Below, piece by piece: positions 6,631-54,202 of a stretch of 64,000 nucleotides of DNA (position 1 is the stretch's first letter; every line of letters begins with the position of its first letter). A program made the position numbers and the translations under genes. The notes below the pieces were generated by a model. It was not told the DNA's origin, did no database searches, and was given only the letters and a program-made list of their open reading frames with translations. This DNA is from an uncultured Nitrospiraceae bacterium (GTDB taxonomy: Bacteria > Nitrospirota > Thermodesulfovibrionia > Thermodesulfovibrionales > Dissulfurispiraceae), in NCBI GenBank assembly GCA_963727805.1, contig CAVSHF010000003.1, forward strand, positions 224,001-288,000, in the 5' to 3' direction.

Positions 6631-7683
6631 GTGGGTTTCGAATTGATCAAAGCTGTCATGGCACTCCTGACACTCCTTGGAGGGCTGTATCTTCTCCTCA
6701 GATTTCTGCGAGGAAGGATCATGCCTAAAAAGGGGATCATCGAAATGGTCCACTATCAGCCTTTCGGTCCCAAAAAAGGTGTTGCGATAGTCAAGATTGT
6801 AAAAGACTATGTTGCCCTCGGCATTGCTGATGAGAATATTTCGCTCCTCGGAAAACTGAATCCCGCAGACGTGGAAGCATCCATGAAGCTGATGGAAGAT
6901 AAACCCGCAGCTGCCCCCTTTGACATCAGGGGACTTTTTGGCGGAAAACTAAAGCGGTTTTTCCCGGTCATCGTGGCAGCAGTTTTAATACTGCCATCTA
7001 TGACGTTTGCTCAGACGCCCTCTGCTGCGGCCCCTGCTGTATCTCCGGGCTTCTTTGGGCTTACCACACCTATCGAACTTCTCTTTTTTTTGACGATCAT
7101 CGCTTTCTTGCCGGCAATCCTCGTCATGACGACCTGTTTCACGAGGATCGTCATAGTACTCTCTTTTTTGAGGCAGGCACTCGGAACGCCGCAGGTGCCC
7201 CCTACCCAGGTAATTATCGGTCTATCTCTATTCATTACCTTTTTTGTCATGTCTCCTGTTTTTGATACTATTTATACGAATGCGTATATTCCTTATACAA
7301 AGAAAGAGATCAAGTCTGACGAGGCCCTTGCGAAGGCTTCCGATCCGTTGAAAGAATTCATGCTCAAGCAGACGAGGGAAAAGGACCTCGCACTCTTCCT
7401 GAAGATGTCCAAGGCCGAGAGACCTGCCAAGCCTATGGATTTGCCCATGAGGGTAGTAGTCCCCGCTTTTTCGATTGGAGAGCTGAAGCGTGCTTTCGAA
7501 ATAGGATTTCTTATTTATTTGCCCTTTCTGGTCATCGATATGGTTGTTGCCAGCGTGTTGCTCTCGATGGGCATGATGATGCTACCGCCGGTAATGGTAT
7601 CAATGCCCTTCAAGATCCTTCTGTTTGTGCTCGTTGACGGATGGGGACTTCTTATAGGATCGCTAATAGAGGGTTTCCGATGA
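6631..7683 (+). CDS. fliP: Fused FliO-FliP export gate protein
   Basis: aa1-~90 are FliO-like (TM, GPKKGVAIVKI..LGIADENISLL); the rest is FliP (TCFTRIVIVLSFLRQALG, PFLVIDMVVAS, PFKILLFVLVDGW); no stop between. Confidence 0.9.
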   Translation: MGFELIKAVMALLTLLGGLYLLLRFLRGRIMPKKGIIEMVHYQPFGPKKGVAIVKIVKDYVALGIADENISLLGKLNPADVEASMKLMEDKPAAAPFDIRGLFGGKLKRFFPVIVAAVLILPSMTFAQTPSAAAPAVSPGFFGLTTPIELLFFLTIIAFLPAILVMTTCFTRIVIVLSFLRQALGTPQVPPTQVIIGLSLFITFFVMSPVFDTIYTNAYIPYTKKEIKSDEALAKASDPLKEFMLKQTREKDLALFLKMSKAERPAKPMDLPMRVVVPAFSIGELKRAFEIGFLIYLPFLVIDMVVASVLLSMGMMMLPPVMVSMPFKILLFVLVDGWGLLIGSLIEGFR

Positions 7684-13776: not shown

Positions 13777-14529
13777 TTGCCCATGGTAGACTCATATACA
13801 GCAGCGGGACTGCCGGGACCGCCCGACCAACGAGAAGAGATAGTTCGCCAATTTTTGCCAAGGGTAAAATATTATGCGCATAAATACGCCTTTGGGTTGC
13901 CGCCTGAACTGGAGGTCGAGGATCTTGTGTCCGCCGGAATCGTCGGTCTTCTCGAAGCCGTCAACAGGTTCAATCCAGCCATGAACACTACGCTAAGCAC
14001 CTTTGCCGATTTCAGGATCAGGGGTGCTATTATCGATGAGATACGCTCCATGCAGTGGGCCTCGAAAGATGTTAAGAAAAAGATCGAGGAGGTCAGGCAT
14101 ACGTATGAAGAAATCGAAAAGAATTTGCACCGAAGCGCTACTGATGAGGAAGTTGCTGAAAAGCTTAAGATTAGCATAGTTGAACTCCATAAAATATTAG
14201 CAACTGTTAACACTGTAAGGATGGTACGTCTCGAAGATCTAGGCTTAAATCGAGATGGCGAGACGCTTGACATTCTTGAATGCATTTCAGCCGAAGGTAA
14301 AAAAGACGTGCTCGACGAGCTTGGCATGAGGGAACTTCAGACGACCCTTGGAAAGGTGATTGATGAACTCCCTGAGAAGGAACGCCTGGTTCTGACACTT
14401 TACTATTACGAAGAACTCAATATGAAAGAAATAGGGCGCGTTCTTAATGTCAGCGAATCGAGGGTATGCCAACTCCATGGCAAGGCACTCCTTAAGCTCA
14501 GGAAAAAAATGGATGAATTTAAGGACTGA
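13777..14529 (+). CDS. fliA: RNA polymerase sigma-28 factor FliA
   Basis: EDLVSAGIVGL, RIRGAIIDEIR, LYYYEELNMKEIG.VLNVSESRVCQLH; TTG start 8 nt after GGAGG. Confidence 0.95.
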   Translation: MPMVDSYTAAGLPGPPDQREEIVRQFLPRVKYYAHKYAFGLPPELEVEDLVSAGIVGLLEAVNRFNPAMNTTLSTFADFRIRGAIIDEIRSMQWASKDVKKKIEEVRHTYEEIEKNLHRSATDEEVAEKLKISIVELHKILATVNTVRMVRLEDLGLNRDGETLDILECISAEGKKDVLDELGMRELQTTLGKVIDELPEKERLVLTLYYYEELNMKEIGRVLNVSESRVCQLHGKALLKLRKKMDEFKD

Positions 14530-19929: not shown

Positions 19930-21129
19930 ATGCAATTTATCGGTTTTATGATGAACGGTAGTGAATATACAATTCCTATATTGAAAGTGCAGGAGATCGT
20001 CAACCTGCCTCACGTGACCAAGCTGCCGCAGGCCCCCGATTATCTTGAGGGCGTTACGAATCTGCGGGGGAAGATAATTCCGATCATCAATCTGAAAAAA
20101 ATGGTTGGGCTTCAAAGCGAGAGCGCCGGAGAAAAAGTGATCGTCATTTCGAGCGGACGGATCACCTTTGGAGTCCTCGTTGACGGTATCACCGGGGTCG
20201 TATCGATCGAGGAGAGTGAGATTGAGCCGGCGGCGAATTTCATGAATACCCAGATTGAGCAGATAGAGGGAGTGGCCCGTATCAATGACAGGCTAATTGT
20301 CCTGCTCGATACCAAAAAGCTTATTCCTCTTGAGGATGTCGGGCTGTTCGAAGACAATGTCTTTGAGGTGACCGACACGGGGGATAATAAGGTCGAGGTT
20401 GTGAGAACCGTTCAAGGGATGGGCGGACAGATACTGGTAAAAGAGGTGGTTGATGCCAAGGACTATTTTGAAAAAAATAGCCCTCCTCCGGGCGATCCAC
20501 GCAATGAAATATATGGTAAGGTCATGGAATTCATGGACGCCGTTGCAACCCAGGACTTTGAAAAAGCCGATGGATTAATTCAGAGCATTGCATCTAGCCA
20601 GGGGCAGACTGGTCAGGTCGATCTTTTCAAGCAGGTCGGCAAAGTAACCCGGAAACTCCATGATTCGATCAAGAGTTTCAAGGAGGCACTTGATCCACGG
20701 CTGAAGGACATGGCGATGACGGATATGCCGAGTGCTATCGATAAATTGCAATTCGTGATTGAAAAGACTGAGGATGCGGCAAATAAGACGATGGGCATAG
20801 TGGAAAAATACATCCTGTTCATGGACGACCTTTCCATGCACATCCGCAATATCAAGGAGCCTCAGGAGTCGGTCGAATACCTGAAAAAATTCAAAAATGG
20901 CCTCGAAGATGATCTAACGGAGATCTTGACAACGCAATCGTTTCAGGACCTGACGGGTCAGACTCTGAAAAAAGTGATTACCCTGGTGGGTGATATCGAA
21001 GAGGAGCTTGTGGGCCTGATTGCAAGTTTCGGTTTTAAAACAGAGAGCAGGGGGAAAGCTGAAGCGGTTGCCGCTGAAAACGTATCTCAGGAAGGAGTAG
21101 ATGACCTGTTAAAGGACTTCGGTTTTTAG
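19930..21129 (+). CDS. Fused CheW-CheZ protein
   Basis: N-terminal CheW (VQEI..LPQAPDYLEGVTNLRGKIIP); C-terminal CheZ (TEDAANKTM, QSFQDLTGQ, SQEGVDDLLKDFGF). Confidence 0.88.
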   Translation: MQFIGFMMNGSEYTIPILKVQEIVNLPHVTKLPQAPDYLEGVTNLRGKIIPIINLKKMVGLQSESAGEKVIVISSGRITFGVLVDGITGVVSIEESEIEPAANFMNTQIEQIEGVARINDRLIVLLDTKKLIPLEDVGLFEDNVFEVTDTGDNKVEVVRTVQGMGGQILVKEVVDAKDYFEKNSPPPGDPRNEIYGKVMEFMDAVATQDFEKADGLIQSIASSQGQTGQVDLFKQVGKVTRKLHDSIKSFKEALDPRLKDMAMTDMPSAIDKLQFVIEKTEDAANKTMGIVEKYILFMDDLSMHIRNIKEPQESVEYLKKFKNGLEDDLTEILTTQSFQDLTGQTLKKVITLVGDIEEELVGLIASFGFKTESRGKAEAVAAENVSQEGVDDLLKDFGF

Positions 21130-27114: not shown

Positions 27115-28220
27115 AAAAAACACTGGTGGCACTTCTTCTGGCATTACTCATGATATTTTTTATGGCTTCCGTTGTTTTAGCTGAACGTGTCAAGGATATA
27201 GCATCGTTTTCGGGTATCAGGGAAAACGAGATAATCGGCTACGGGCTTGTTGTCGGACTTAACCAGACGGGAGACAAAGACGGCACTTACATTTATCAGC
27301 CTTTTGCCAATATGCTCAACAAGATGGGCATCAACGTTACCCAGGCTGACTTAAAGACCAAGACAAAGAACATTGCCGCAGTTATTGTCACCGCAAAACT
27401 GCCGACGATGGTAAGACCGGGGTCAACTGTCGATGTTCAGGTCTCTTCAATCGGTGATGCCAAGAGCCTTCAGGGCGGCACGCTGCTAATGGCCCCGCTT
27501 AAAGGCCCCGACGGTAATGTCTATGCTGTTGCTCAAGGGCCTATTTCGATAGGGGGCTTCTCTGCGGGTGGTGGGGGTACGACAACCGTTAAAAATCATC
27601 CGACTGTAGGGATGATCCCAAACGGCGCTATCGTCGAAAAAGAAGTTCCAGTACAGATGAACAGGAAAAGCAGGCTTGAGCTGCTTCTTGCTACTCAGGA
27701 CGTAACGACGGCTATGCGGATTGCGGACAAAATCAATGCACAGTTCCAGGGGGGCATCGCCAAAGCGGAAACCCCGTCACTGGTGGCTCTGAGCATCCCG
27801 CAAGAATATTCAGATAGGGTTATTGATTTTATGTCAAAAGTAGAACTCATAGAGGTGCAAGTAGATATGCCTGCCAAGGTCATCGTTAACGAGCGTACGG
27901 GCACCGTGGTAATAGGAGAGAATGTAAGGATTAGCCCCATTGCTCTTGCTCACGGCGGTCTTACGATCGAGATCAAGACAGAATACCAGGTTTCACAGCC
28001 GCAGTCTTTCGCACCCAAGAAGGCAGAAACTGTGGTTGTCCCCAAAACCGAGGTTAAGGCTGAAGAAAAGAAGGGGACGCTCATGGAAGTTAAGGGAACT
28101 ACCGTCGGGGAACTAATCAAAGCGTTAAATGCGCTTGGAGTTACCCCGAGAGACCTTGTTGCGATAATGCAGGCCATAAAGGCTTCCGGTAATCTGAAAG
28201 CCGAACTGGTGTTAATGTGA
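27111..28220 (+). CDS. flgI: Flagellar P-ring protein FlgI
   Basis: RVKDIA..GYGLVVGL, SSIGDAKSLQGGTL, VNERTGTVV. Confidence 0.97.
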   Translation: MKKTLVALLLALLMIFFMASVVLAERVKDIASFSGIRENEIIGYGLVVGLNQTGDKDGTYIYQPFANMLNKMGINVTQADLKTKTKNIAAVIVTAKLPTMVRPGSTVDVQVSSIGDAKSLQGGTLLMAPLKGPDGNVYAVAQGPISIGGFSAGGGGTTTVKNHPTVGMIPNGAIVEKEVPVQMNRKSRLELLLATQDVTTAMRIADKINAQFQGGIAKAETPSLVALSIPQEYSDRVIDFMSKVELIEVQVDMPAKVIVNERTGTVVIGENVRISPIALAHGGLTIEIKTEYQVSQPQSFAPKKAETVVVPKTEVKAEEKKGTLMEVKGTTVGELIKALNALGVTPRDLVAIMQAIKASGNLKAELVLM

Positions 28221-28657
28221 TGGCAACGATGACTGGAATAACGTCACAAGCAGTGCTCCCGGCCAATCTCTTGATGGACTCTGGAAGAATTGCCGGGTTG
28301 GATAAAAACATGGATCCTCAGAAAGCAGCTAAACAGGTGGAACAGGTCTTTCTCGGAGAGTTAATCAAAGTCATGTTCGACAATACTGAAGTCGGCAAAG
28401 GCCAAATGGTGTCAGGCTATATGCCCATCGTTGCGTCGGAGGTTGCCAAAGCACTTTCAGCCCGGGGCATAGGGTTTCACGAGTTTTTGATGAGAAGTCC
28501 ACAATTCAGTAACATGGTGACAAAAAATCAGACAACAGATAAGACTGACAAAAGAGCTGACAACAACGCAGCGGTGGATAAGACGGTTGGAGAATTAAAG
28601 ATGCCTGTGCGCGGAGGTATTACTTCTGCTTACGGGGCGGTTTCCAGGGCAAAGTGA
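28217..28657 (+). CDS. flgJ: FlgJ-like rod-binding protein with a truncated M23 remnant
   Basis: KAAKQVEQVFLGELIKVM..EVAKALS.RGIG; directly after flgI; ends MPVRGGITSAYG. Confidence 0.75.
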   Translation: MMATMTGITSQAVLPANLLMDSGRIAGLDKNMDPQKAAKQVEQVFLGELIKVMFDNTEVGKGQMVSGYMPIVASEVAKALSARGIGFHEFLMRSPQFSNMVTKNQTTDKTDKRADNNAAVDKTVGELKMPVRGGITSAYGAVSRAK

Positions 28658-28766: not shown

Positions 28767-29072
28767 ATGAAAATGAGGATCACAGACAAGGCAGACGTCG
28801 GCGGGGTCAACTTTCAAAAGCCAGAGAAAACAAAGGATAAGGCAAGCGAAGGGGCGTCCGGAGAAGTCACATCGAAGGACGACCAGATAAGCCTATCGGG
28901 CGCAGCCAAGGAGATTGGCAGGCTGCAAGCAGAAGTGAGCAAGCTGCCCGATGTCCGTACCGACAAGGTGGAAGAACTTAAAAGTGCAATTAATTCGGGC
29001 ACTTACAATGTGAAGGGGGATGCCATAGCCGGCAAATTATTGAAAAATGCAATCATCGACGAACTTATATGA
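28767..29072 (+). CDS. flgM: Anti-sigma28 factor FlgM
   Basis: DQISLS..PDVRTDKVEELKSAINSGTYNV...IAGKLL. Confidence 0.93.
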   Translation: MKMRITDKADVGGVNFQKPEKTKDKASEGASGEVTSKDDQISLSGAAKEIGRLQAEVSKLPDVRTDKVEELKSAINSGTYNVKGDAIAGKLLKNAIIDELI

Positions 29073-29493
29073 AGAACTGATCGCTGTACTGGAACGAGAG
29101 TTTGACCTCTGTTCCGATTTGGTAGCACTGCTGCAGAAGGAAAAGGATGTGATCGCGGGCCTTGACACCGTGGCCCTCGATGGACATCTCAGGGACAAGG
29201 AACTTGTTACCGCCAAGATTCAGGTGCTTGAAGACTCTAGAGAGAGGATCCTGCAATCACTTGGATTCACTGACAAGACGCTTTCCGAAGTGGCTGCATC
29301 TGCTGAACCGAATTATAAAGAACGCCTTTCCTTTATTGCATCCAAATTCAAATCCATTGCAAACAGCATAAAGGAATTGAATACCCTGAACAGTCTGTTG
29401 ATAGACAAATCGCTTTTTTACATCAAAAGCTCCCGTAATTTCCTGAGTACTTTTGGTATCAATCCCAAGCAACGCGTTTCCATGGAGGCATGA
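29047..29493 (+). CDS. flgN: Export chaperone FlgN
   Basis: Helical, L..LLQKEKDVI, ELN.LN..LI; between flgM and flgK. Confidence 0.85.
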   Translation: MQSSTNLYEELIAVLEREFDLCSDLVALLQKEKDVIAGLDTVALDGHLRDKELVTAKIQVLEDSRERILQSLGFTDKTLSEVAASAEPNYKERLSFIASKFKSIANSIKELNTLNSLLIDKSLFYIKSSRNFLSTFGINPKQRVSMEA

Positions 29494-30869
29494 CGATGTC
29501 TATGCTCGGCATTTTGAACATCGGGACCAGCGCACTTCTTGCTGCACAGAGTGCCATGAACACTACATCAAACAATGTGGCCAACGCATCGACTCCCGGC
29601 TATACACGCCAGGAAGTGGAGTTGTCGAGTGTCCCGTCTGGACTAACAGGCCTCACAGGGTCAAGTGGAAATGGGGTAACTGTTACAGATGTCAAGAGGC
29701 TCTATGACTCCTTTACTACCCTGCAGTTAAGAACTGAGGAGTCCAACTCATCTTATTGGAGCACCTATTCAAATTATGCCAGCTCCATAGAAAATGTATT
29801 CAACGAAACCTCTACTACCGGGATAGGCCCTGCCATCAGCAACTTTTTCAATGACTGGCAGCAAGTTGCGCAGAATCCGCAGGGCACTGCTGAAAGGACT
29901 ACACTTCTCAGCGATGCACAGTACCTGAGTTCACGTATCAGTGGCGCGTATAATAATCTTGCAAACCAGCAAGCACAGATTTATCAAAATAGCCAAGACC
30001 TGGTGACACAGGTCAATAATATCTCACAACAGATTAATGGCCTTAACGGAAAAATCGTCTCCGCTCCAGGAGACCTCGGGCTGCAAGACCAGAGGGATTC
30101 ATTGGTAGAGCAGCTCAACCAGATCACTCGCGTGACTACCGTCGAAGACAGCAGTGGCAGATATAATGTTTATGTAGGGGGGACGGCACTTGTTGATGCT
30201 TCCGGTTCACATGATATGTCGGTTGCCCTGGATGGCAATAATGCCATGCAATTTAGCGTCGGCGCTACTAATATCAACAGCCAGATGACGACCGGCGGTC
30301 AACTCAATGCCAACCTCGTTGCACGGGATACTACCATAGCGGGCTATATCACACAGCTTAATACATTTGCGACCGACTTCAGCAACACTATCAATGCCCA
30401 GCAAGCTGCGGGCTTTGATTTAAACGGCACGGCAGGCGCAAATTTATTCACCACGCCCTCAGCCCAGTTTGCCGCGCGGGATATGAGTGTGGCTATCACC
30501 GACCCGAATAAGATTGCGGCATCGGCGACTGCAGCCGGGGTACCTGGCGATAATCAGAATGCTCAGGCTATCGCAAACCTTGCGGATTCGGCATTTATGT
30601 CGGGCAGCACTCCCACTGATTATTACAGCAATATTGTCTCTGCCGCTGGCACAGATGCCCAGTCGGCAAATACGTATGTATCATTTGAGACATCCCTGGT
30701 GAATCAGCTGCAAACACAGAGACAGTCAACATCGGGAGTAAGTCTCGACCAGGAGGCGGCTAACCTGGTTCAGTATGAGAAATCCTACGAGGCGGCGGCA
30801 AAGATTATCAGTATGGGCAGTGATCTTCTGGACACTATTATCGGGATGGTCAGTACAAGTACCAGTTAA
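29490..30869 (+). CDS. flgK: Hook-associated protein FlgK
   Basis: SNNVANASTPGYTRQ, DQRD.L, SGVSLDQEAANL..Y..AAK. Confidence 0.95.
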   Translation: MTMSMLGILNIGTSALLAAQSAMNTTSNNVANASTPGYTRQEVELSSVPSGLTGLTGSSGNGVTVTDVKRLYDSFTTLQLRTEESNSSYWSTYSNYASSIENVFNETSTTGIGPAISNFFNDWQQVAQNPQGTAERTTLLSDAQYLSSRISGAYNNLANQQAQIYQNSQDLVTQVNNISQQINGLNGKIVSAPGDLGLQDQRDSLVEQLNQITRVTTVEDSSGRYNVYVGGTALVDASGSHDMSVALDGNNAMQFSVGATNINSQMTTGGQLNANLVARDTTIAGYITQLNTFATDFSNTINAQQAAGFDLNGTAGANLFTTPSAQFAARDMSVAITDPNKIAASATAAGVPGDNQNAQAIANLADSAFMSGSTPTDYYSNIVSAAGTDAQSANTYVSFETSLVNQLQTQRQSTSGVSLDQEAANLVQYEKSYEAAAKIISMGSDLLDTIIGMVSTSTS

Positions 30870-30880
30870 GGAGGTAATAC

Positions 30881-31774
30881 GTGAGAATTACAACACAGAT
30901 GCTCTATTCGCAATTTAACTATAACCTTCAAAATAGCATGAATGCCGTTTATCAAACTGACGAACAGATTGCAAGCGGACAAAAATTGAACACCCCTTCA
31001 GATGATCCTTCCGCGGTATCGGATATCATCTCTGGCAAGGCAGAGTTAAGTTCCATTGCAGGGTACCAGGATGCGATTACCAGCGCCAACCTGTTGCTGA
31101 ATGCTACCAATACGGCTCTTGGGAGCCTGAGCACGCTTATTTCAAGCGCTCAACAGGCAGGCCAGAGTGCTTTGTCAGCATCGGCATCTGATATGGGTAC
31201 CTATGCATCCATGGTTGGCAATCTGATTCAGAGCACCATAGGAATCGCCAATACAAAGGTTGGGGACAAGTATATTTTTTCGGGATTCGCAACTGACAAG
31301 CCTGCAGTCGATAGTTCAGGCCTGCTGCAGGGTACATCGGACCTCATCTCGATGCAGATCAATACCGGGACTTCGGTCAAGGTGAATGTTACGGCTGCAG
31401 GCCTGATTTCATCTGCTGCCCCCCTGGACAACACTACTATCATCGGGGCAATGACAGCCCTCCAGACAGCTATTCAGGCTAACAATCAGGCAAACATCCA
31501 GTCCGCGCTGACAGCTCTTGGCAATCTCTCATCGACCGTTCTTGCCAAGCAATCCGATGTGGGTACGAGATTGAATATGACCAATCAGGAAAGTCAGGTT
31601 CTCACCGCAACGGATACGGATGTCACCAACGATGTGTCCGACAAGCTAATGCTTTCCACAGTTGATATTGCCAGGCTCTCTGCACTTTCGCAGCAGCAGC
31701 AGACTGCGTTGTCGAGCTTAAGGACTATCACCAACGGTGCCCTTAATACAAGTCTTTTTGATTTCTTGAAATGA
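30881..31774 (+). CDS. flgL: Hook-associated protein FlgL
   Basis: MRITT, SGQKLNTPSDDP, YIFSG, SLFDFLK. Confidence 0.93.
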   Translation: MRITTQMLYSQFNYNLQNSMNAVYQTDEQIASGQKLNTPSDDPSAVSDIISGKAELSSIAGYQDAITSANLLLNATNTALGSLSTLISSAQQAGQSALSASASDMGTYASMVGNLIQSTIGIANTKVGDKYIFSGFATDKPAVDSSGLLQGTSDLISMQINTGTSVKVNVTAAGLISSAAPLDNTTIIGAMTALQTAIQANNQANIQSALTALGNLSSTVLAKQSDVGTRLNMTNQESQVLTATDTDVTNDVSDKLMLSTVDIARLSALSQQQQTALSSLRTITNGALNTSLFDFLK

Positions 31775-31798
31775 GATAAGACTGCCGAAGTCCAACAG

Positions 31799-31826
31799 AA
31801 AGGAAGGCATTAGCCTTCCTTTTTTT
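31799..31826 (+). terminator. Intrinsic terminator after flgL (possibly bidirectional)
   Basis: AAAGGAAGGC-ATTA-GCCTTCCTTT plus a T run. Confidence 0.85.
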
Positions 31827-32223
31827 GTTTTCATACTATCTATTGGTTAGGAGAAATGGTGCATCGGCGGAATTTTGAGTTTTTGGTGCTATTTCCAAAA
31901 GAGGCTTTGATTACAATCGGTGGTAGCAGCCGCGGTTTGTGTCTGAGCACTCACAGGTTCAAGTGGGGAATATCAAGCCTTGATGCTCACCGAAATTTGC
32001 AACATTTTATCTGCATATCGAGACGTCATAAGTCGCGTTTTGAGAATGTCTTTGCTGATGGATCACCGATTCATGATTGGAAGTATTTTTTTCGGCATCG
32101 GTAGTACTCTGGTTCAGCCTCACCTTGACGTTTCCTCTTTCATTCTGACAATCAGAGAATCAATTGGATCGATGCTATCGCAGGCAGTATTGTCCCCTGC
32201 GAGCACCATGTTCTTAGTGCTTC

Positions 32224-32517
32224 CTATGACCATCTCGAGGTTATTCTTATTTTGCTTTGGGAGTTATTATGCTGGTATGACTTGGCTGCAGACTCGGCCT
32301 CTTGTGGTGGTTTGACTGCACTTGTCGTGAGATTGGATGCTGCAGCATTTTGTGCTTCGTTGCTGATTGTTACCTTGTCAGCGGCAGCATGATGCTTTGC
32401 ATGGGCCTTGTGGGTTTTCGCGTGGTTATGGGTTATATTGGTGACTTGCGATGCCGGCTCGGTTGCGCCTGCAGCCGAATTGACGACTCCTGTGATTCTG
32501 TTGTCTACCATAGCCAT
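32224..32517 (-). CDS. Hypothetical Ala/His-rich protein (97 aa)
   Basis: AAGGGG RBS, follows flaF; contains DKVTISNEAQ. Confidence 0.6.
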   Translation of the reverse strand: MAMVDNRITGVVNSAAGATEPASQVTNITHNHAKTHKAHAKHHAAADKVTISNEAQNAAASNLTTSAVKPPQEAESAAKSYQHNNSQSKIRITSRWS

Positions 32518-32563
32518 AAATTATCCCCTTCATGCGCATTAATTGTTATTACCGAGTTTGTGT

Positions 32564-32947
32564 CTATCGCCCCTGCAGTCCGGCGGCAATATTGAGGTTG
32601 ATGTTCACGAGGATGTTCAGCTTCTCTTTGGCGGGGGTGATCATAATGTCCACCGTATGTCTGTTGATGAAGGCGGAGAGTCTCAGAATGTTTATTCTGA
32701 TTTCACCTGGAAGCTGACAAGCATCATTGGCAACCTCGGTTTGAAATATTGTCCAGACTCTTTGGTTTAATTTGAGCGCATCTGACAGGCGCGTCCTGAT
32801 GTCCGGATGGTCCCATGTGTCGATGCAGTCATTCAGTTTGAGTGCACACTTTGTTAATACGTCAGATTCGGTATCCCTGCCGCTGACTGTTGCTGTGTGG
32901 ACTGTCTTGTATGCGTTTATTTGCTTGTTACACGCCATGGCTCGCAC
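32564..32947 (-). CDS. flaF: Flagellar biosynthesis regulator FlaF
   Basis: AY......SGRDTE..VL, DAL..NQRVWTIF, LP.EIR.NIL.LS.FI, LVNIN.NIAAGL; coupled to flbT. Confidence 0.88.
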   Translation of the reverse strand: MRAMACNKQINAYKTVHTATVSGRDTESDVLTKCALKLNDCIDTWDHPDIRTRLSDALKLNQRVWTIFQTEVANDACQLPGEIRINILRLSAFINRHTVDIMITPAKEKLNILVNINLNIAAGLQGR

Positions 32948-33338
32948 TGATAGCCTCCTCTAATAATTTATTTTCCATTTCGATAAGTGTTTTTATTTGC
33001 GTTAGCGCTTTATAGTATTTTTGATCCATTACCAGTTTGGTTATTATATTGATCGGTCCAACCAGACTCGGAGCAGCCTTCATTATTTCCATTATTTGAG
33101 ACGAATATGAAGTGGAATATCGATCCAAATTGTCGGAATCGATATACATGAGCTGGACCGTAAAATACAGGTTTTTGCACGGTGTATTTGCATCTTGCGG
33201 CCTAATGATCTCCTTTTCTCTTAAGATGCTCACTTTGTTTTCGAATACCAGCTCACATCGTCTTGTCCCGCCGTTTGTGATCACCGCTCCGCTGACAATA
33301 CATTTCTCGCCTGGCTTCAACTCAATTTTTAATGGCAT
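32928..33338 (-). CDS. flbT: Flagellin translational regulator FlbT
   Basis: MPLKIELKPGEK.IV.GAVITNG, ILRE.EI....ANTP...LYF.VQLMYID, YYKAL...K.LI..E. Confidence 0.92.
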   Translation of the reverse strand: MPLKIELKPGEKCIVSGAVITNGGTRRCELVFENKVSILREKEIIRPQDANTPCKNLYFTVQLMYIDSDNLDRYSTSYSSQIMEIMKAAPSLVGPINIITKLVMDQKYYKALTQIKTLIEMENKLLEEAISASHGV

Positions 33339-33373
33339 TTTCTATGCCCTCCTTGGAACAATATTCTATTGTT

Positions 33374-33853
33374 TTAGACTTTGATATTTAAAAGCGACCC
33401 GGGTTTTGCCGGTTCGGTGGATAATTGGTGGTTATCATTCAGAGTATCTTTCAGCTTGTATAGATTGTCAAGAGCTTTCGAGACTTCTATATCTGTTGCA
33501 TTGGGCGGCAGCGTATTGCCGGGGGACACTATTTTCTTGATATTATGGTCTATAGGTGACGTCTTGATGTCTTCCTGTAGTCCCTTAATTCTCTTGATTA
33601 ATGCTGGTCTTTGCGGATGCCCAGCTGGGAAGAAAGGCGGAAAAGAGTCAATTAATTCCTTCAGTTGGTTCTGTATATAATTTACACCTTGCAATATTGA
33701 TGTTACATCAGCTGCTGTTGTACTGCCTGTATTTGATGTATCAGCTTGGAAAAAAGAATTTGTTGTTCTGTTTGTGGTCGCATCACTATTCATCCCGTCG
33801 CTTCGGGTTATGGCCTGAGAATATTGACTTGTCTGTACGCCGCTGATATCCAT
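33374..33853 (-). CDS. Hypothetical protein directly downstream of flagellin
   Basis: 159 aa; S/T-rich N-terminus, FPPFFPAG motif between helices, C-terminus GSLLNIKV. Confidence 0.75.
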   Translation of the reverse strand: MDISGVQTSQYSQAITRSDGMNSDATTNRTTNSFFQADTSNTGSTTAADVTSILQGVNYIQNQLKELIDSFPPFFPAGHPQRPALIKRIKGLQEDIKTSPIDHNIKKIVSPGNTLPPNATDIEVSKALDNLYKLKDTLNDNHQLSTEPAKPGSLLNIKV

Positions 33854-33873
33854 GTTTTTTTAAGCCCCGATGA

Positions 33874-33900
33874 TATAAAGTGGGGGGGAAATCCCCCCCT
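33874..33900 (-). terminator. Hairpin after flagellin (weak terminator or mRNA stabiliser)
   Basis: G7-AAAT-C7 stem with a short U-rich tail on the minus strand. Confidence 0.55.
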
Positions 33901-33927
33901 TAGCTCAGTTATACAAAAAACGTAATC

Positions 33928-34761
33928 CTATCCGAACAGTTTCAGTACTGACTGTGCCGACTGAGACGCAAGGCTCAGTGCCGTTGTGCCAAGTGACTGC
34001 CTGGTCTGGAGCATCAGCATGTTCGCGCCTTCCTGATTAGTGTCTGCGAGTGTAAGGTTATCTGAGCCAGTCTGAAGCACGTTCATGATGCCAGTTGAAA
34101 AGCTCTGTCTCGTCTGTATGATTGAAAGGCTGCTGGAAAGTGTTTGAGCCGTGCCTTGCAACGTTGTGATAGCAGCCGAGGCTGCGGCATTAGCGCCAGC
34201 TAGAGCGGTCCAACCGGTAACTCCGGTATCGCCGGCTGTATATGCAGTGATAAGTCCGAGAGTAGTGCTTGTCGTTGCCGCGGCAGGCGTAACAGTTAAT
34301 TTGTCAGCCGCGCCAGACCCGAAAGTAACCGTAAGCGTATTGGCGGCGAGCAGGTTTGTTCCCTGGAATCCGGAATCCCCTGACATTTGGTCGATCTGAT
34401 CCAAAACTGTTTTATACTGGGTTTCCAGATTAAACTGAGCCGTCTTGTCAGAGGTGGCTAAGGCCGATTGTACTAACGACTGAGCCTGCTGAGTCAATGA
34501 TTGAATACTGGTGATACCCTGGTTGGCAGCCTGGATAGTCTGAATACCATTGCTCATGCCGTCGTTGTAGGACGCGAGCTGATTAGCCTGATTCAGCATA
34601 TTCTGAGATGCAAAGTACTCAAGCGGGTTATCCAGGGCTGAATTGACTTTCTTGCCTGTTGCCAAGTGCTGCTGAGTGGTTTGTGTTAGATTGGCGGTGT
34701 TCTGAAGTGCTACGAGGTTGGCCCTCATGCCTGCTGTTAAAGAAATGTCTCCGATGCTCAT
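33928..34761 (-). CDS. fliC: Flagellin (short, alphaproteobacterial-style)
   Basis: ISLTAGMRANL..LQ...LATGKKVNSALDNP..YF; C-terminal LTLADTNQEGANMLMLQTRQSL..SAQSVLKLFG. Confidence 0.95.
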   Translation of the reverse strand: MSIGDISLTAGMRANLVALQNTANLTQTTQQHLATGKKVNSALDNPLEYFASQNMLNQANQLASYNDGMSNGIQTIQAANQGITSIQSLTQQAQSLVQSALATSDKTAQFNLETQYKTVLDQIDQMSGDSGFQGTNLLAANTLTVTFGSGAADKLTVTPAAATTSTTLGLITAYTAGDTGVTGWTALAGANAAASAAITTLQGTAQTLSSSLSIIQTRQSFSTGIMNVLQTGSDNLTLADTNQEGANMLMLQTRQSLGTTALSLASQSAQSVLKLFG

Positions 34762-34871
34762 GGTATATCTCCTCTGATGGGAATATTTACCTGCCTTCTG
34801 GCAGGCTTCGCGGCATTTGCTTCTTTACTTCCGTTTCTTGCTTCCCCCTTCCTTCATTTCCTTTAATATAG

Positions 34872-34898
34872 TTTTCGACGGTGTCAGGAAAAACTTTA
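34872..34898 (-). promoter_or_regulatory. sigma28 promoter of flagellin
   Basis: TAAAGTTT-N11-GTCGAAAA on the minus strand. Confidence 0.85.
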
Positions 34899-34922
34899 GC
34901 GTATTTTCACAAAAAAATTTCA

Positions 34923-36254
34923 TTATGCAATTTGTGACATTCCGCTGTATTCATTGGCCTTCGAGTCCATGACGTTCCCGTAGACGTCTTTTCCGCCGAA
35001 CCTGAACATGATGTGCTCCGGGTCAATGGTGCCATTGCCGCTGGTGTTTTGAGTAATACTGAATTGTACTGTAGCAGTCTGTGTGACTGAATTATAGGAA
35101 ACGCCAAGAGGTATCGGAGAAATAGTTGCCTCAGTGGGGTTTATCGTCATCCCGAAATTATAAGCCCCACCCGGATCCGAGCCTGTAGAGCGGCTAATCT
35201 GCCAGTTCATAACGTTTTGTACGGAACTGGGATCCATGTTGTTACTGAATACAAAGTTCATAGACTCTATCTTTATAGTATTAGGTTGTGAATATGCCGG
35301 GTCCATTGTTGACAGTTGGGTATTAGGCCCAAGCGCTGGATTGAATCCAGAACTGTAAACAGTCACTATTTTGGGATCCGTGTGTTGGGTAATATATGCT
35401 TGGAGCAGAGTCTCAGCAGCTTTGCTGGTTGTTGAAGAATTTGTTGAATTACTGCTTGCCGTAGATGTTGCCGACGATGAATCCGTTGTGGAAGAATCGG
35501 CCATAGCAGTAAGTACTTTCATTTGATCATTGGCAGCACTTAAGTTTTTCATGTCCACATAAGTTTCCCCAAGCTCCAGAAGTGAGTTGCTATCTTTGGG
35601 GCTGATGTCTAGTGCCTTACCAAGTTCGTTTATAGCCGCACTATAGTTGCCCATCTTATGGTAAAGCTGTCCAAGAGCAGAATACCCGCTGGAATCATTC
35701 GGGGTCAGCTGCACTACCATTTTGAATTGGGTTTCTGCGGCTGTGTAATTGCCTGCTGCCATATACGCCTGCCCCAGCGAGTAATTATCTGATGAGGTTC
35801 CGGGATTCTCCGCTACGGCTTTAGAGTAAGCCTTGATTGCGTCAGTGTAATCTTTCTGGCCATAATATACATCTCCTAAGGCACAATCTATCGTGTCACT
35901 TTGCGGAAAGACCTCTTGCGCTTGCTTAAAGAGCTTGATGGCCGCATCATTATTCCCTTGTTTCTGATAGATTCCAGCCAGTAATTGATACGCCTGCACC
36001 GAATTGTCAGAATATGGTGACAGTCCTATAGATAATTTATAATCCGTTATTGCCTCTTGCGTATTTCCGCTTTGTTGCGCATTAGTACCATTGGATAGAG
36101 CGGAAGCCGCGATGTTGTCTATCATGTCTTGCGTGGGAGCTGTGGATGAAAACAGATCGTCCACCTGCATGTTTTGCTTGTTTTGGTCACTTGACGCGCC
36201 GACGCTTGTAGATAAGCCTATGCCTATTGACGGTGTTAACCAGATATCCGACAT
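34923..36254 (-). CDS. TPR-repeat protein with a C-terminal beta-rich (Ig-like) domain
   Basis: About 6 TPR units (aa ~50-250), a Ser/Thr linker, then beta-rich FVFSNNMDPSSVQN..NWQI; no Sec signal. Confidence 0.85.
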   Translation of the reverse strand: MSDIWLTPSIGIGLSTSVGASSDQNKQNMQVDDLFSSTAPTQDMIDNIAASALSNGTNAQQSGNTQEAITDYKLSIGLSPYSDNSVQAYQLLAGIYQKQGNNDAAIKLFKQAQEVFPQSDTIDCALGDVYYGQKDYTDAIKAYSKAVAENPGTSSDNYSLGQAYMAAGNYTAAETQFKMVVQLTPNDSSGYSALGQLYHKMGNYSAAINELGKALDISPKDSNSLLELGETYVDMKNLSAANDQMKVLTAMADSSTTDSSSATSTASSNSTNSSTTSKAAETLLQAYITQHTDPKIVTVYSSGFNPALGPNTQLSTMDPAYSQPNTIKIESMNFVFSNNMDPSSVQNVMNWQISRSTGSDPGGAYNFGMTINPTEATISPIPLGVSYNSVTQTATVQFSITQNTSGNGTIDPEHIMFRFGGKDVYGNVMDSKANEYSGMSQIA

Positions 36255-36305
36255 TAATTTCCCCTCGTTACTATTCGGATATAAACAACGCTTTTCATAC
36301 AGTAA

Positions 36306-36332
36306 TTATCGGTACATAAGACTGAAACTTTA
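36306..36332 (-). promoter_or_regulatory. sigma28 promoter of the TPR gene
   Basis: TAAAGTTT-N11-ACCGATAA on the minus strand. Confidence 0.88.
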
Positions 36333-36486
36333 GGCTTGCACAAAGATAATAATATGCAGCCGCATAAGTATAAGGCGCTATAACGAGCTTGTGATTTTGA
36401 AAAAAATGTCTTAAAGTGTTATTTTATCAAGTGTTAGAGCTAAACACTTGCGGATATTTATATGAAAAGGAGGATTCTCGCCACCT

Positions 36487-36960
36487 ATGAAACGCGTGCC
36501 GATGACGCCTGAAGGCTATCAGAAGATGAAAGAAGAGCTCGACAGGCTCCTTAAAGTAGATAGACCAAAGAATATTAGGGATATTGCCGAGGCGAGGGCC
36601 CACGGCGACCTTTCCGAAAATGCGGAATACCATGCCGCCAGGGAGAAGCAATCATTTTTGGAGGGACGGATCCAGGAACTCCAGGCTAATATCTCAATGG
36701 CTGAGGTAATAGACGCCTCGAAGATAAACCAGTCAAGGGTTGCCTTCGGCGCGAAGGTCAAGGTTTTCGATGTTGAAGCCGATGAAGAATACGTATTTAC
36801 TATCGTGGGGACTGAAGAAGCCAATGTGAAGAGCGGCAAGATATCTATTACCTCGCCTGTTGCACGCGCTTTAATCGGCAAGGAGGTCGGTGACGTTGCC
36901 GTTGTTAAGGCCCCTGCCAGGACTATTGAATACGAGGTCGTCGAGATAACCTTTGAGTAG
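36487..36960 (+). CDS. greA: Transcription elongation factor GreA
   Basis: ARAHGDLSENAEYHAA, ISITSPVARALIGK. Confidence 0.97.
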   Translation: MKRVPMTPEGYQKMKEELDRLLKVDRPKNIRDIAEARAHGDLSENAEYHAAREKQSFLEGRIQELQANISMAEVIDASKINQSRVAFGAKVKVFDVEADEEYVFTIVGTEEANVKSGKISITSPVARALIGKEVGDVAVVKAPARTIEYEVVEITFE

Positions 36961-51642: not shown

Positions 51643-53175
51643 ATGATCGCCTTGGCATTCCCTCTGGAAATCGTTTTAAAGAAACCCTCAGACTTGGATA
51701 AGAAGGCTGACAGGGAAAGATTACTTGACGCCATTTCCCAAACCCTTGTGAGTTCTTTACCTCTCGATATAGACCTGGATGTACTTAGGCGGGTTCCTGC
51801 CCTGATGAGGGAACAGGATTTTTTCCTCCAAGTCGTGATCGCGTTATTAAGGGCGAGGCTCGAAGTAGTCGCTGCAGGGCAGGCCGCATGTTACGGAATT
51901 GCCATCGACCTTGGGACCACGAATCTGGTCGCATCATTCTTCGACATGAAGACATTCAACAAAATTGATTTAAGAGAAACAGTCAACCCCCAGACCTCAA
52001 TCGCCTCGGATGTGCTCTCCAGGATCCATGAATCCATGAAGGGTAGAGGTGAAGAGCTGCATCGACTTATGATAGAGGGAGTTAATGAACTAGTCGGGCA
52101 GTTATGCGTGGCGAATGGTGTCGATAGTCGGGATATTTTTGCCCTCACAGTTGCGGGGAATACCATAATGACCCATTATTTTCTTAACCTGCCAGTAGAG
52201 AATATTCCAATGGCGCCTTACATTCCAGTGGCGCACACGCCGGGGTTCATCCGTCCGTCGCAATTGGGAATTGCCATTAATCCCAAAGCTGTCGCCTATG
52301 TATTTCCCAATGCCGGGAGCTACGTAGGTGGAGATATTTTTTCGGGCATTTTAGCTTCAGGCCTCTATCGGAATAGGGAACCTTCTCTTCTAATCGATGT
52401 GGGTACTAATGTCGAGATTGTTCTGGGCTGTAACGAATGGATCATTGTCGGGGCCGGTGCGGCAGGTCCCGCCTTGGAGGGGGACATTGCGGGCATAGGA
52501 ATGCGGGCTGAAGAAGGGGCTATCTATGAAATCGAGATTGAAACGGCGGCCGATGCACAGGGAAAACCGTGTGAACTGAAATATAAGACTGTTGGTGGCA
52601 GCGGACCCTCGGGCATTTGCGGATCGGGCATGATCGAACTTGTTTCGGAACTTTTCAGAAATGGCATAATCGATCAACGGGGGAAATTCACCACTTTATC
52701 GGGCAGGTCGGGACGTGTTATAGAGTGGGAAGGCAATCGAGGATTTGTTATCCATGACGGGGGTGGAAGAAAGCTCCTGATCAAGGAGACTGAGATCGAT
52801 AATTTCCTAAGGTCGAAGGCGGCACTTTTTACATCGATCCATATACTCATAAAATCGGTAGGACTAAGCTTTAGCGACTTGCAGAAGGTTTATGTCTGTG
52901 GCGCCTTCGGAGCCCATATTAATGTCGATAAGGCTATCAGCATCGGCATGCTTCCGGATATCGACCGAGAGAGATTCATTATTCTCGGCAACTCTTCACT
53001 AGCAGGGACGGAAAAGCTCCTTGGCGACAGAGGCTTGCTCCCCGAAATCGACCGGATATCATCACTTATTACCTACCGGGAAATGAATACGGATGGCGAT
53101 TTCCTCAGAGAGTTTCCGGCTGCGATGTTCCTGCCACATACGGACCCCGAGGTTCTTAAGGCGAAATCTTACTGA
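51643..53175 (+). CDS. ASKHA-domain ATPase (RACo/DUF4445 family)
   Basis: IDLGTT, DVLSRI, GNTIM, YVGGDI, DVGTN.E, AGPALEG, GICGSG, GAFG. Confidence 0.9.
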   Translation: MIALAFPLEIVLKKPSDLDKKADRERLLDAISQTLVSSLPLDIDLDVLRRVPALMREQDFFLQVVIALLRARLEVVAAGQAACYGIAIDLGTTNLVASFFDMKTFNKIDLRETVNPQTSIASDVLSRIHESMKGRGEELHRLMIEGVNELVGQLCVANGVDSRDIFALTVAGNTIMTHYFLNLPVENIPMAPYIPVAHTPGFIRPSQLGIAINPKAVAYVFPNAGSYVGGDIFSGILASGLYRNREPSLLIDVGTNVEIVLGCNEWIIVGAGAAGPALEGDIAGIGMRAEEGAIYEIEIETAADAQGKPCELKYKTVGGSGPSGICGSGMIELVSELFRNGIIDQRGKFTTLSGRSGRVIEWEGNRGFVIHDGGGRKLLIKETEIDNFLRSKAALFTSIHILIKSVGLSFSDLQKVYVCGAFGAHINVDKAISIGMLPDIDRERFIILGNSSLAGTEKLLGDRGLLPEIDRISSLITYREMNTDGDFLREFPAAMFLPHTDPEVLKAKSY

Positions 53176-54202
53176 GGCTATCCGACGCCGTTATTTCGGC
53201 GATTGCCGCTTCAGGTGCTTGTAGAGGACGCTTTGCTCCGATAAAGCGCTTTACGTAATAGGGGGTATCCAGATTGTCGATCTGCACCTTCTTTGCTCTC
53301 GACGAGGCATGAATAAACATATTGTTGCCGATGTAAATCCCGACATGCGAAGGGAAAGATGCATAGGTCCGGAAAAAGAGCAGATCGCCGCTTTGCAACT
53401 CTGCCCTGTTGATCTCCTCACCCACCTTGTACTGCTCTCGTGCGCTCCGTGGAAGGGGTTGGCCGACGAAACCGTAGACCTTTTGTACAAAGGATGAGCA
53501 ATCAAGCCCAAAGATCCCGTTGCCGCCGAACTTATAAGGAAGGTTTTGCATTTTTTTTGCGAAGAGCAGAAGGCGATCAGTAGCCGACAGAGTCGATAGT
53601 TCATCTGATTGGGACAATGCCTTTACTTCTTCAATTTTATCCGAAACATTAACACGCTTACTCATCTTGTCTGATTCAGGGGCCTTTTCTTCTTTATCCG
53701 AAGACTTGCCAACGATCAGCTGCCTACCGGTTTTAAGCTTATTGCTTGTCATATGATTAAGTAGTTTTAATTCTCGCACTGACAGGCCATATTTCTTAGC
53801 GATATTAGCAGGGGTTTCTCCCTTCTTGACAGTGTGGTATTCTCTGTCCCCGCTGTCGGCGGAACTACTATTCTTTTGAGGTGCCGGCTCGTTCTCCGTC
53901 GTCTGCAATGCCCTTTCAGTTGAATTTGTTTTGACCGTTTTTGCAGTTTTATCGGTTTTTGAAGACTTCTTCGAAGGGATAATCAATTTCTTCCCAATAG
54001 ACAGATCATCAGAGTCGAGATGGTTGGTCTCCCTTAATTCATTGACCGGGACTTTGAACTTTTTTGCTATTTTAGCAAGATTGTCTCCCCTTTTAACCTT
54101 ATAATGGGTATTGGCTTCCGCCATGGTCAGCATGCACAGGGACACAATCACGGCGATTAAAGCGGTATAGATAAAGCTTCTTTTATAAGAATATCTATGC
54201 AT
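53156..54202 (-). CDS. LysM x2 + NlpC/P60 cell-wall endopeptidase
   Basis: Signal peptide, YKVKRGDNL and HTVKKGET LysM domains, PYKFGG..DCSSF, HVGIYIG..FIHAS. Confidence 0.93.
   Translation of the reverse strand: MHRYSYKRSFIYTALIAVIVSLCMLTMAEANTHYKVKRGDNLAKIAKKFKVPVNELRETNHLDSDDLSIGKKLIIPSKKSSKTDKTAKTVKTNSTERALQTTENEPAPQKNSSSADSGDREYHTVKKGETPANIAKKYGLSVRELKLLNHMTSNKLKTGRQLIVGKSSDKEEKAPESDKMSKRVNVSDKIEEVKALSQSDELSTLSATDRLLLFAKKMQNLPYKFGGNGIFGLDCSSFVQKVYGFVGQPLPRSAREQYKVGEEINRAELQSGDLLFFRTYASFPSHVGIYIGNNMFIHASSRAKKVQIDNLDTPYYVKRFIGAKRPLQAPEAAIAEITASDSLSKISP

Follow-up and report, generated by a model that had tools for sequence, protein, structure and literature searches.

The systems closest to the one described here are the FliD (HAP2) cap with FliS and FliT, and the FlbT/FljJ/FlaF system of Caulobacter crescentus. 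Caulobacter also has FlaY, a β-propeller protein that Kint and Viollier reportedly presented in 2023 as a non-FliD factor for flagellin polymerization. As far as the available text of two sources extends (PMC7591256, PMC9812332), repression by FlbT in Caulobacter requires the flagellin paralogue FljJ and is relieved once FljJ is secreted in a FlaF-dependent manner. The accessible portions of PMC13277936, where FlaY is listed as the FliD analogue and FlaF as the FliS analogue, and of 10.1101/2024.09.25.614892, where non-FliD factors are acknowledged and FliD-free filament growth is named as a limitation, both cite FlaY, which thus sets a precedent for a non-FliD polymerization factor. A module related to these systems is present in a 64,000-nucleotide stretch of the genome of an uncultured Nitrospiraceae bacterium (contig CAVSHF010000003.1, positions 224,001–288,000, referred to below as the window; host genome G000, 3.89 Mb in five contigs, 100% complete). 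Its largest member, ORF-A, encodes tetratricopeptide repeats (TPR) followed by an immunoglobulin (Ig)-like domain and, judging from sequence comparisons, may well stand in for the FliD cap by capturing flagellin at the tip of the growing filament. As a third type of filament cap it is the strongest candidate, and it is likely an independently evolved substitute.

The block comprises six minus-strand open reading frames (ORFs) of 443, 277, 159, 136, 127, and 97 residues and converges on flgM-flgN-flgK-flgL (28767..31774, plus strand, assigned by profile matches), as the initial annotation had described. ORF-A (34923..36254), in which Pfam recognizes TPR repeats, is followed by a flagellin of the PRK12688-like type (33928..34761), which matches Flagellin_N and has PRK12688 as its best NCBIfam model (203 bits, below the model cut-off of 614). 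Then come ORF-B (33374..33853; no family at E<0.05), FlbT (32928..33338; PF07378, E=1.9e-39), FlaF (32564..32947; PF07309, E=4.4e-28), and the low-complexity ORF-C (32224..32517; no family at E<0.05), with FlbT and FlaF both over the Pfam cut-off, and FlaF over and FlbT just under that of NCBIfam. Both fliA, encoding sigma28 (13777..14529, plus strand; TIGR02479, 243 bits, over the cut-off), and flgM lie inside the window. The absence of fliD, fliS, flaG, fliW, and csrA, noted initially for the window, extends to the whole of G000, where a profile search found no over-cut-off match for FliD_C, FliD_N, FliS, FliW, CsrA, FlaG, or DUF1217 (all of these profiles except DUF1217 gave matches in control genomes) and no canonical fliD/fliS/fliW/csrA locus elsewhere. 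Flagellin_N is matched in this genome by the one flagellin and FlgL only. A degenerate FliD was rejected, a custom hidden Markov model from four FliD proteins giving a best E of 0.26; the single weak FliD_C match (E=0.047) belongs to a 523-residue membrane-anchored protein that is not FliD and presumably resembles a chain-length regulator. The hybrid filament system proposed from the window is seen in the joint presence of FliA/FlgM and FlbT/FlaF, with FliD and FliS nowhere in the genome, and the block is a filament module standing in place of the missing fliC-fliD-fliS-fliW-csrA set.

With the C. crescentus system, as described in the available text, the locus shares flbT, flaF, and a divergent flagellin paralogue beside flagellin, as well as the lack of FliD and FliS. 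It differs in that Caulobacter uses no FliA, whereas FliA/FlgM are present here and sigma28 sites are conserved, and in that FljJ is a full flagellin, whereas ORF-B is eroded to 159 residues without polymerizing ends and stands beside one structural flagellin. The cassette hosts also lie outside Caulobacter's group, namely among Nitrospirota, Desulfobacterota, Thiobacillus relatives, and metagenome-assembled genomes (MAGs) of Bacteroidota/Ignavibacteriota. In Table S1 of PMC13277936, read by column position, one Desulfobacterales genome has FliA, FliC, and FlaF present with FliD, FlaY, DUF1217, and FliS blank, on which the available text makes no comment. No description of ORF-A, of the cassette outside Alphaproteobacteria, or of the leader hairpin discussed below was found in the literature covered, to which subscription papers and preprint supplements mostly did not belong.

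The AlphaFold model of ORF-A, built with 29 sequences, starts with a disordered N-terminus (residues 1–38), followed by TPR helices (42–254), a serine/threonine linker, and the Ig-like domain (~296–437). The predicted local distance difference test (pLDDT) of the AF2 model is 85 overall, with a low-confidence linker, and 90.5 for the C-terminal domain alone. This domain belongs to no Pfam family, Big_5 matching it weakly in 3 of 70 members; its nearest structure is that of the S-layer protein SbsC (VIA Z of 8.8, root-mean-square deviation 2.7, 93 aligned residues, the next unrelated row being at Z 6.5). Foldseek gave a best E of 3e-3 with the domain and nothing at E<=0.001, and the full-length model has structural matches to TPR proteins only. 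Like FliD, ORF-A would be a late, sigma28-driven protein, likely exported without a signal peptide and filling the same phyletic slot, but it matches neither FliD_N nor FliD_C and has no sequence or fold likeness to FliD. With FlaY, in the descriptions available, it would share the role of a non-FliD factor in a FlaF/FlbT organism, shown for FlaY and predicted for ORF-A; whereas FlaY is a β-propeller, the ORF-A models consist of helical repeats and one β-sandwich. The TPR-glycosyltransferase FlmG also has an N-terminal TPR array, which binds flagellin, and a gene near flagellin (PMC7591256, available part), thereby offering a precedent for a flagellin-binding TPR domain; it carries a transferase domain, however, whereas ORF-A ends in an Ig-like domain, has no glycosyltransferase domain, and is export-like in composition. 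By these domain tests, ORF-A is not FliD, FlaY, or FlmG.

Cysteine makes up 0.06% of 51 ORF-A sequences, compared with 1.63% of TPR segments elsewhere in these loci, 0.01% of flagellin and FlgK, and 0.7–1.6% of FlaF, FlbT, and FlgN. Since periplasmic FlgI is also cysteine-poor (0.17%), this marks ORF-A as extracytoplasmic rather than as specifically flagellum-exported. No hydrophobic N-terminal stretch is present in 29 ORF-A members (maximum 0.2–1.8, against 3.36 for the FlgI control; no signal-peptide predictor was run), and export through the flagellum is likely. The 25-fold cysteine depletion relative to neighboring TPR proteins, together with a disordered N-terminus rich in serine, threonine, and asparagine, argues against the quite unlikely alternative of a cytoplasmic ORF-A, acting as a flagellin chaperone or as an adaptor serving FlmG-like TPR glycosyltransferases, which are frequent neighbors of the cassette. 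Such a protein would need no signal peptide, the flagellin binding of the FlmG TPR domain (PMC7591256, available part) would give it a model, and large TPR-containing genes, likely for glycosylation enzymes, do separate flaF from ORF-A at several loci; the window's block has no such gene, however, ORF-A has no transferase domain, and the chaperone slot is already taken by FlaF, given its listing as the FliS analogue in the accessible part of PMC13277936.

The proposal that ORF-A co-occurs with FlaF and anti-correlates with FliD, put forward as a check of the initial annotation, holds in all four samples of genomes: 201 of the Nitrospirota class, 121 of the Thiobacillus family around G261, those of 50 of the 80 ORF-A loci (three phyla), and those of 50 out of 80 loci selected for their flagellin type, independently of ORF-A and mostly outside Nitrospirota. 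The last sample consists mostly of MAGs, certain genomes appear in more than one sample, and related genomes do not count as independent. In the class sample, the ORF-A domain is found in 15 genomes, FlaF in 18, FliD_C in 100, and FlgK in 122; ORF-A and FliD_C never occur together, and all 15 ORF-A carriers have FlgK and 14 of them FlaF. The three genomes with both FlaF and FliD all lack ORF-A, which is present in 15 of the 25 genomes that have FlgK without FliD, and in none of the 79 that are FlgK-negative. Of the remaining 10 genomes with FlgK and neither of the two, five were checked for this flagellin: in two of them it lies close to contig ends, two yielded no match, and the fifth was G044. 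The genomes of the 50 ORF-A loci contain no FliD_C at all, with FlaF in 43. In the Thiobacillus family, ORF-A occurs in 48 genomes, FliD in 42, and both in one, where ~17 would be expected if they were independent, and 44 of the 57 genomes of a strong FlaF class carry ORF-A. Among the flagellin-picked genomes, the corresponding counts are 41, 2, and 1. The near-exclusion of ORF-A and FliD recurs in separate phyla and inside one family.

Several observations weigh against a capping role of ORF-A. Neither ORF-A nor FliD is found in 8 of the 50 flagellin-picked genomes, in 13 of the 57 Thiobacillus-family genomes with strong FlaF (one of them cut at a contig end), or in G268, whose single 2.72-Mb contig encodes FlgK, FlbT, FlaF, and two flagellins. 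G044 (100% complete, 120 contigs) is flagellated without FliD, and ORF-A is missing at the syntenic site both there, cleanly, and in G268, whereas G378 and G398 contain ORF-A and FliD together. Because the whole cassette excludes FliD, the profile cannot separate replacement of FliD from accompaniment of this flagellin type, and Fisher tests of co-occurrence overstate the association since kin are not independent and samples overlap. Moreover, ORF-A has neither a FliD-like fold nor terminal coiled-coil legs, and because its best fold match is the S-layer protein SbsC, the fold would suit a coat or adhesin equally. The main rival, rather unlikely on the whole, takes ORF-A for an accessory protein of the filament that is exported and serves as coat, sheath, or tip adhesin, with the flagellin polymerizing cap-free or with another factor; it would agree with the genomes that have neither gene, with the export-like composition, and with the distant profile matches in long repeat proteins, but would not predict the absence of ORF-A from all three class-sample genomes with FlaF and FliD, nor would a dispensable coat be likely to turn up in 41 of 50 carriers from different phyla.

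Some further arrangements were met in these samples. A weak FlaF class (E 1e-6 to 1e-13) comprises 51 of the 121 Thiobacillus-family genomes, none with ORF-A and 40 with FliD, and at least one copy of this FlaF-like gene lies away from flagellar genes (e.g., L157, G328:C1:824380-824670). Three genomes of the host's family (G029, G024, and G200; L101-L103, L013) have FliD and several flaF copies without ORF-A, at least two of them with this flagellin, and are possible intermediates of a FliD/cassette swap. In Bacteroidota/Ignavibacteriota MAGs (L175, L200, L202, L203, L211, L222, L228, L230) the order is fla-flaF-fla-orfB-flbT, and ORF-A is present in four of the nine tested.

An ORF-A homologue at 80% identity belongs to Dissulfurispiraceae, and a domain tree places ORF-A among Nitrospirota, with the family reaching Desulfobacterales, Syntrophales, Syntrophobacterales, Geobacteraceae, and Thiobacillus relatives. 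The domain profile matches 146 clusters at E<=1e-10, the strong full-length matches being mostly ~400 residues long and the weaker ones including long repeat proteins; no plasmid match was found, the Atlas returned only unnamed clusters, and a single-sequence locus search with ORF-A gave just two unrelated TPR matches. Synteny is loose: in the fetched DNA of the best 80 of 143 stretches, where many contigs are short, fla, flbT, flaF, or flgKL lie near ORF-A in 25 loci. The candidate module of the initial annotation is no one-off and spans several phyla, although its six-gene order is local. The 55 loci with none of these genes nearby might suggest a hitch-hiker without a filament role, which is highly improbable in view of the complete absence of ORF-A from FlgK-negative genomes of the class sample and of the sigma28 sites retained in orphan copies. 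Desulfosarcina genomes (L075/L080, L068/L076, G419) carry a pair of ORF-A paralogues at a distance from the flagellin cassette. Genes of 1,400–2,500 residues between flaF and ORF-A in relatives (L100:7887-13817, L104:11448-19001, L105:8819-13033, L110:6570-16047) likely encode flagellin glycosylation enzymes.

Within the genus, cassette proteins are 35–51% identical and the flagellin N-terminus 60–65%, compared with mostly 60–83% for flanking flagellar proteins, and FliD is kept in 29 of 36 genomes of the host's family. Because the cassette diverges more than its flanks and most family members keep FliD, these data fit repeated exchange of the cassette. The separate histories implied by the contrast with FlgK, FlgM, FlgN, and FlgI (66–83%), and the frequent position of ORF-A between cassette and flgKL, could also speak for a hook-filament junction adaptor seating the acquired flagellin on the host's own FlgL. 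This is very unlikely: hosts whose FlgL proteins differ widely share a conserved ORF-A domain (16 invariant columns among 70 sequences), and such a role alone does not explain the exclusion of FliD.

Both sigma28-type promoters claimed initially were confirmed on the minus strand, one before ORF-A (36306..36332, one mismatch in 16) and one before flagellin (34872..34898, two mismatches). The former is the sole one-mismatch site in the genome, hence the best, and a matrix derived from ORF-A promoters also ranks it first, a partly circular result. Genome-wide, sites with <=2 mismatches number five, against two and four in two shuffles, so that by itself the flagellin site does not exceed chance expectation. 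Its support is conservation: 48 of 90 related flagellin leaders have a site at <=1 mismatch (null 0.3%). Upstream of ORF-A homologues, a site is present in 28 of 74 at <=1 mismatch in 12 (null 0.09%) and in 37 of 74 at <=2 mismatches (null 2.8%), and such sites are kept also before ORF-A copies far from flagellar genes. Nine regions behind other high-scoring intergenic sites, inspected by eye only, held no obvious candidate for another sigma28-driven cap. An orphan 101-residue protein with a rod/hook-type N-terminus (G000:C5:1197451-1197756, minus strand; L280) lies behind a sigma28-like site.

The second protein without a family, ORF-B, is of a different nature. Genes of its type, marked by a PP[FY]P motif, are matched by the profile in 45 of the 79 flagellin loci. 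Almost always they follow a flagellin immediately and precede flbT, and additional loci contain a flagellin-like gene in their stead. The long forms (270–290 residues) align with flagellin over the full length, lengths between these and ORF-B fill a graded series, and a bridge protein, L121, matches both the window's flagellin (24% identity, E=1e-10) and ORF-B (29% over 73 residues, E=1e-7). Sequence comparison thus makes ORF-B a flagellin paralogue by descent, in which the middle helices are kept, the PP[FY]P insert is present, and both polymerizing ends are lost, so that it should not polymerize. Its ancestry and position fit the role of FljJ, and by analogy ORF-B is likely a FljJ-like co-repressor, a proposal against which stand many Desulfobacterales loci with no ORF-B between fla and flbT. 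Identification as FlaG, a chaperone, or TP_0700 was rejected (no Pfam match in 20 members at E<0.03), and Atlas matches of 0.91, with low feature counts, were dropped after the flagellin ancestry emerged.

The flagellin leader contains a hairpin with a 7-bp stem and an AGAA loop (34789..34806, minus strand), identified by leader comparison as a candidate FlbT operator. A stem closed by AGAA (rarely AGGA) occurs in 85 of 91 related flagellin leaders, of which ~8 are hairpins at the ribosome site and represent a different element, against 1.3% of shuffles. The pattern was derived from these same leaders, and the sole outside check is the Thiobacillus set, the hairpin being present in 8 of 12 leaders of Thiobacillus-family and Desulfosarcina regions; among ORF-A leaders, whose start is approximate, it is found in 3 of 77, and among flbT leaders in 1 of 54. 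Three to five pair types occur at each of four stem positions, as counted without alignment in related sequences, and Rfam gives no match at E<=1 in 31700–36500. Because FlbT binds flagellin 5' untranslated regions (PMC3930126, available part) and the genome lacks CsrA, which also represses by binding leaders, the hairpin is likely an FlbT operator. A G7/C7 hairpin 3' of flagellin (33882..33899, minus strand), read from the sequence and folded, is terminator-like.

We can propose a mechanism in which FliA, released from FlgM on hook completion, would transcribe ORF-A and flagellin, while FlbT and its co-repressor ORF-B would bind the AGAA hairpin, ~20–40 bases 5' of the start codon, and block flagellin translation. 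FlaF-assisted export of ORF-B would lift the block, as in Caulobacter FlbT-FljJ-FlaF, and FlaF would take the place of FliS as export chaperone. These repression and chaperone steps, drawn by analogy, are fairly probable, and the regulatory arm would be a Caulobacter-type system placed under FliA, an arrangement that is new. ORF-A would exit through its disordered N-terminus, its TPR groove binding flagellin termini and its Ig domains forming a plate or ring; this step, for which the profile, the regulation, and the composition are the evidence, has about even chances. More tentatively, ORF-A could found a convergent cap class (TPR-Ig, after FliD and FlaY), carried from phylum to phylum by a cassette that regulates itself through a repressor recognizing the covarying AGAA hairpin, with help from a flagellin worn to an export-timing sensor. 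For filament growth without FliD, an open point, ORF-A provides a named candidate that cultured environmental strains also carry. Geomonas limicola Red745, Geotalea toluenoxydans JCM 15764, Citrifermentans bremense R1, and Desulfosarcina widdelii PP31 each have ORF-A, the last in two copies, and are without FliD_C. The hairpin offers a concrete RNA target for FlbT, known from the available part of PMC3930126 to bind flagellin leaders, and the ORF-B series shows a structural subunit decaying stepwise into a likely regulator. Annotations that infer the lack of a filament from missing fliD may mislead for many sulfate-reducing, iron-reducing, and sulfur-oxidizing bacteria.

ORF-C has three close homologues (~70% identity), gave no tblastn match in the other loci searched, and is missing from a same-genus locus, which makes it, by sequence, a real but local small gene outside the conserved module. 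The three unknown proteins, initially suggested to be capping, chaperone, or surface proteins, are therefore not one class: profiling favors such a role for ORF-A, while ORF-B is a degenerate flagellin paralogue and ORF-C is confined to close relatives.

The window as a whole contains a run of flagellar genes that extends from fliI through flgL, as well as fliA, flgM, flhF, and chemotaxis genes, with motA/motB-like genes elsewhere on the same contig, outside the cluster. On its plus strand, fliO and fliP form a single fused ORF of 350 residues (6631-7683), CheW is fused to a CheZ-like region (19930-21129), a four-helix-bundle gene (TIGR02436; 26707-27114) lies between flgH and flgI, and a short FlgJ of 146 residues is without a muramidase domain (28217-28657). 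A long minus-strand ORF (53156-54202) begins with an N-terminal hydrophobic leader and a LysM-like start, as labeled by eye.

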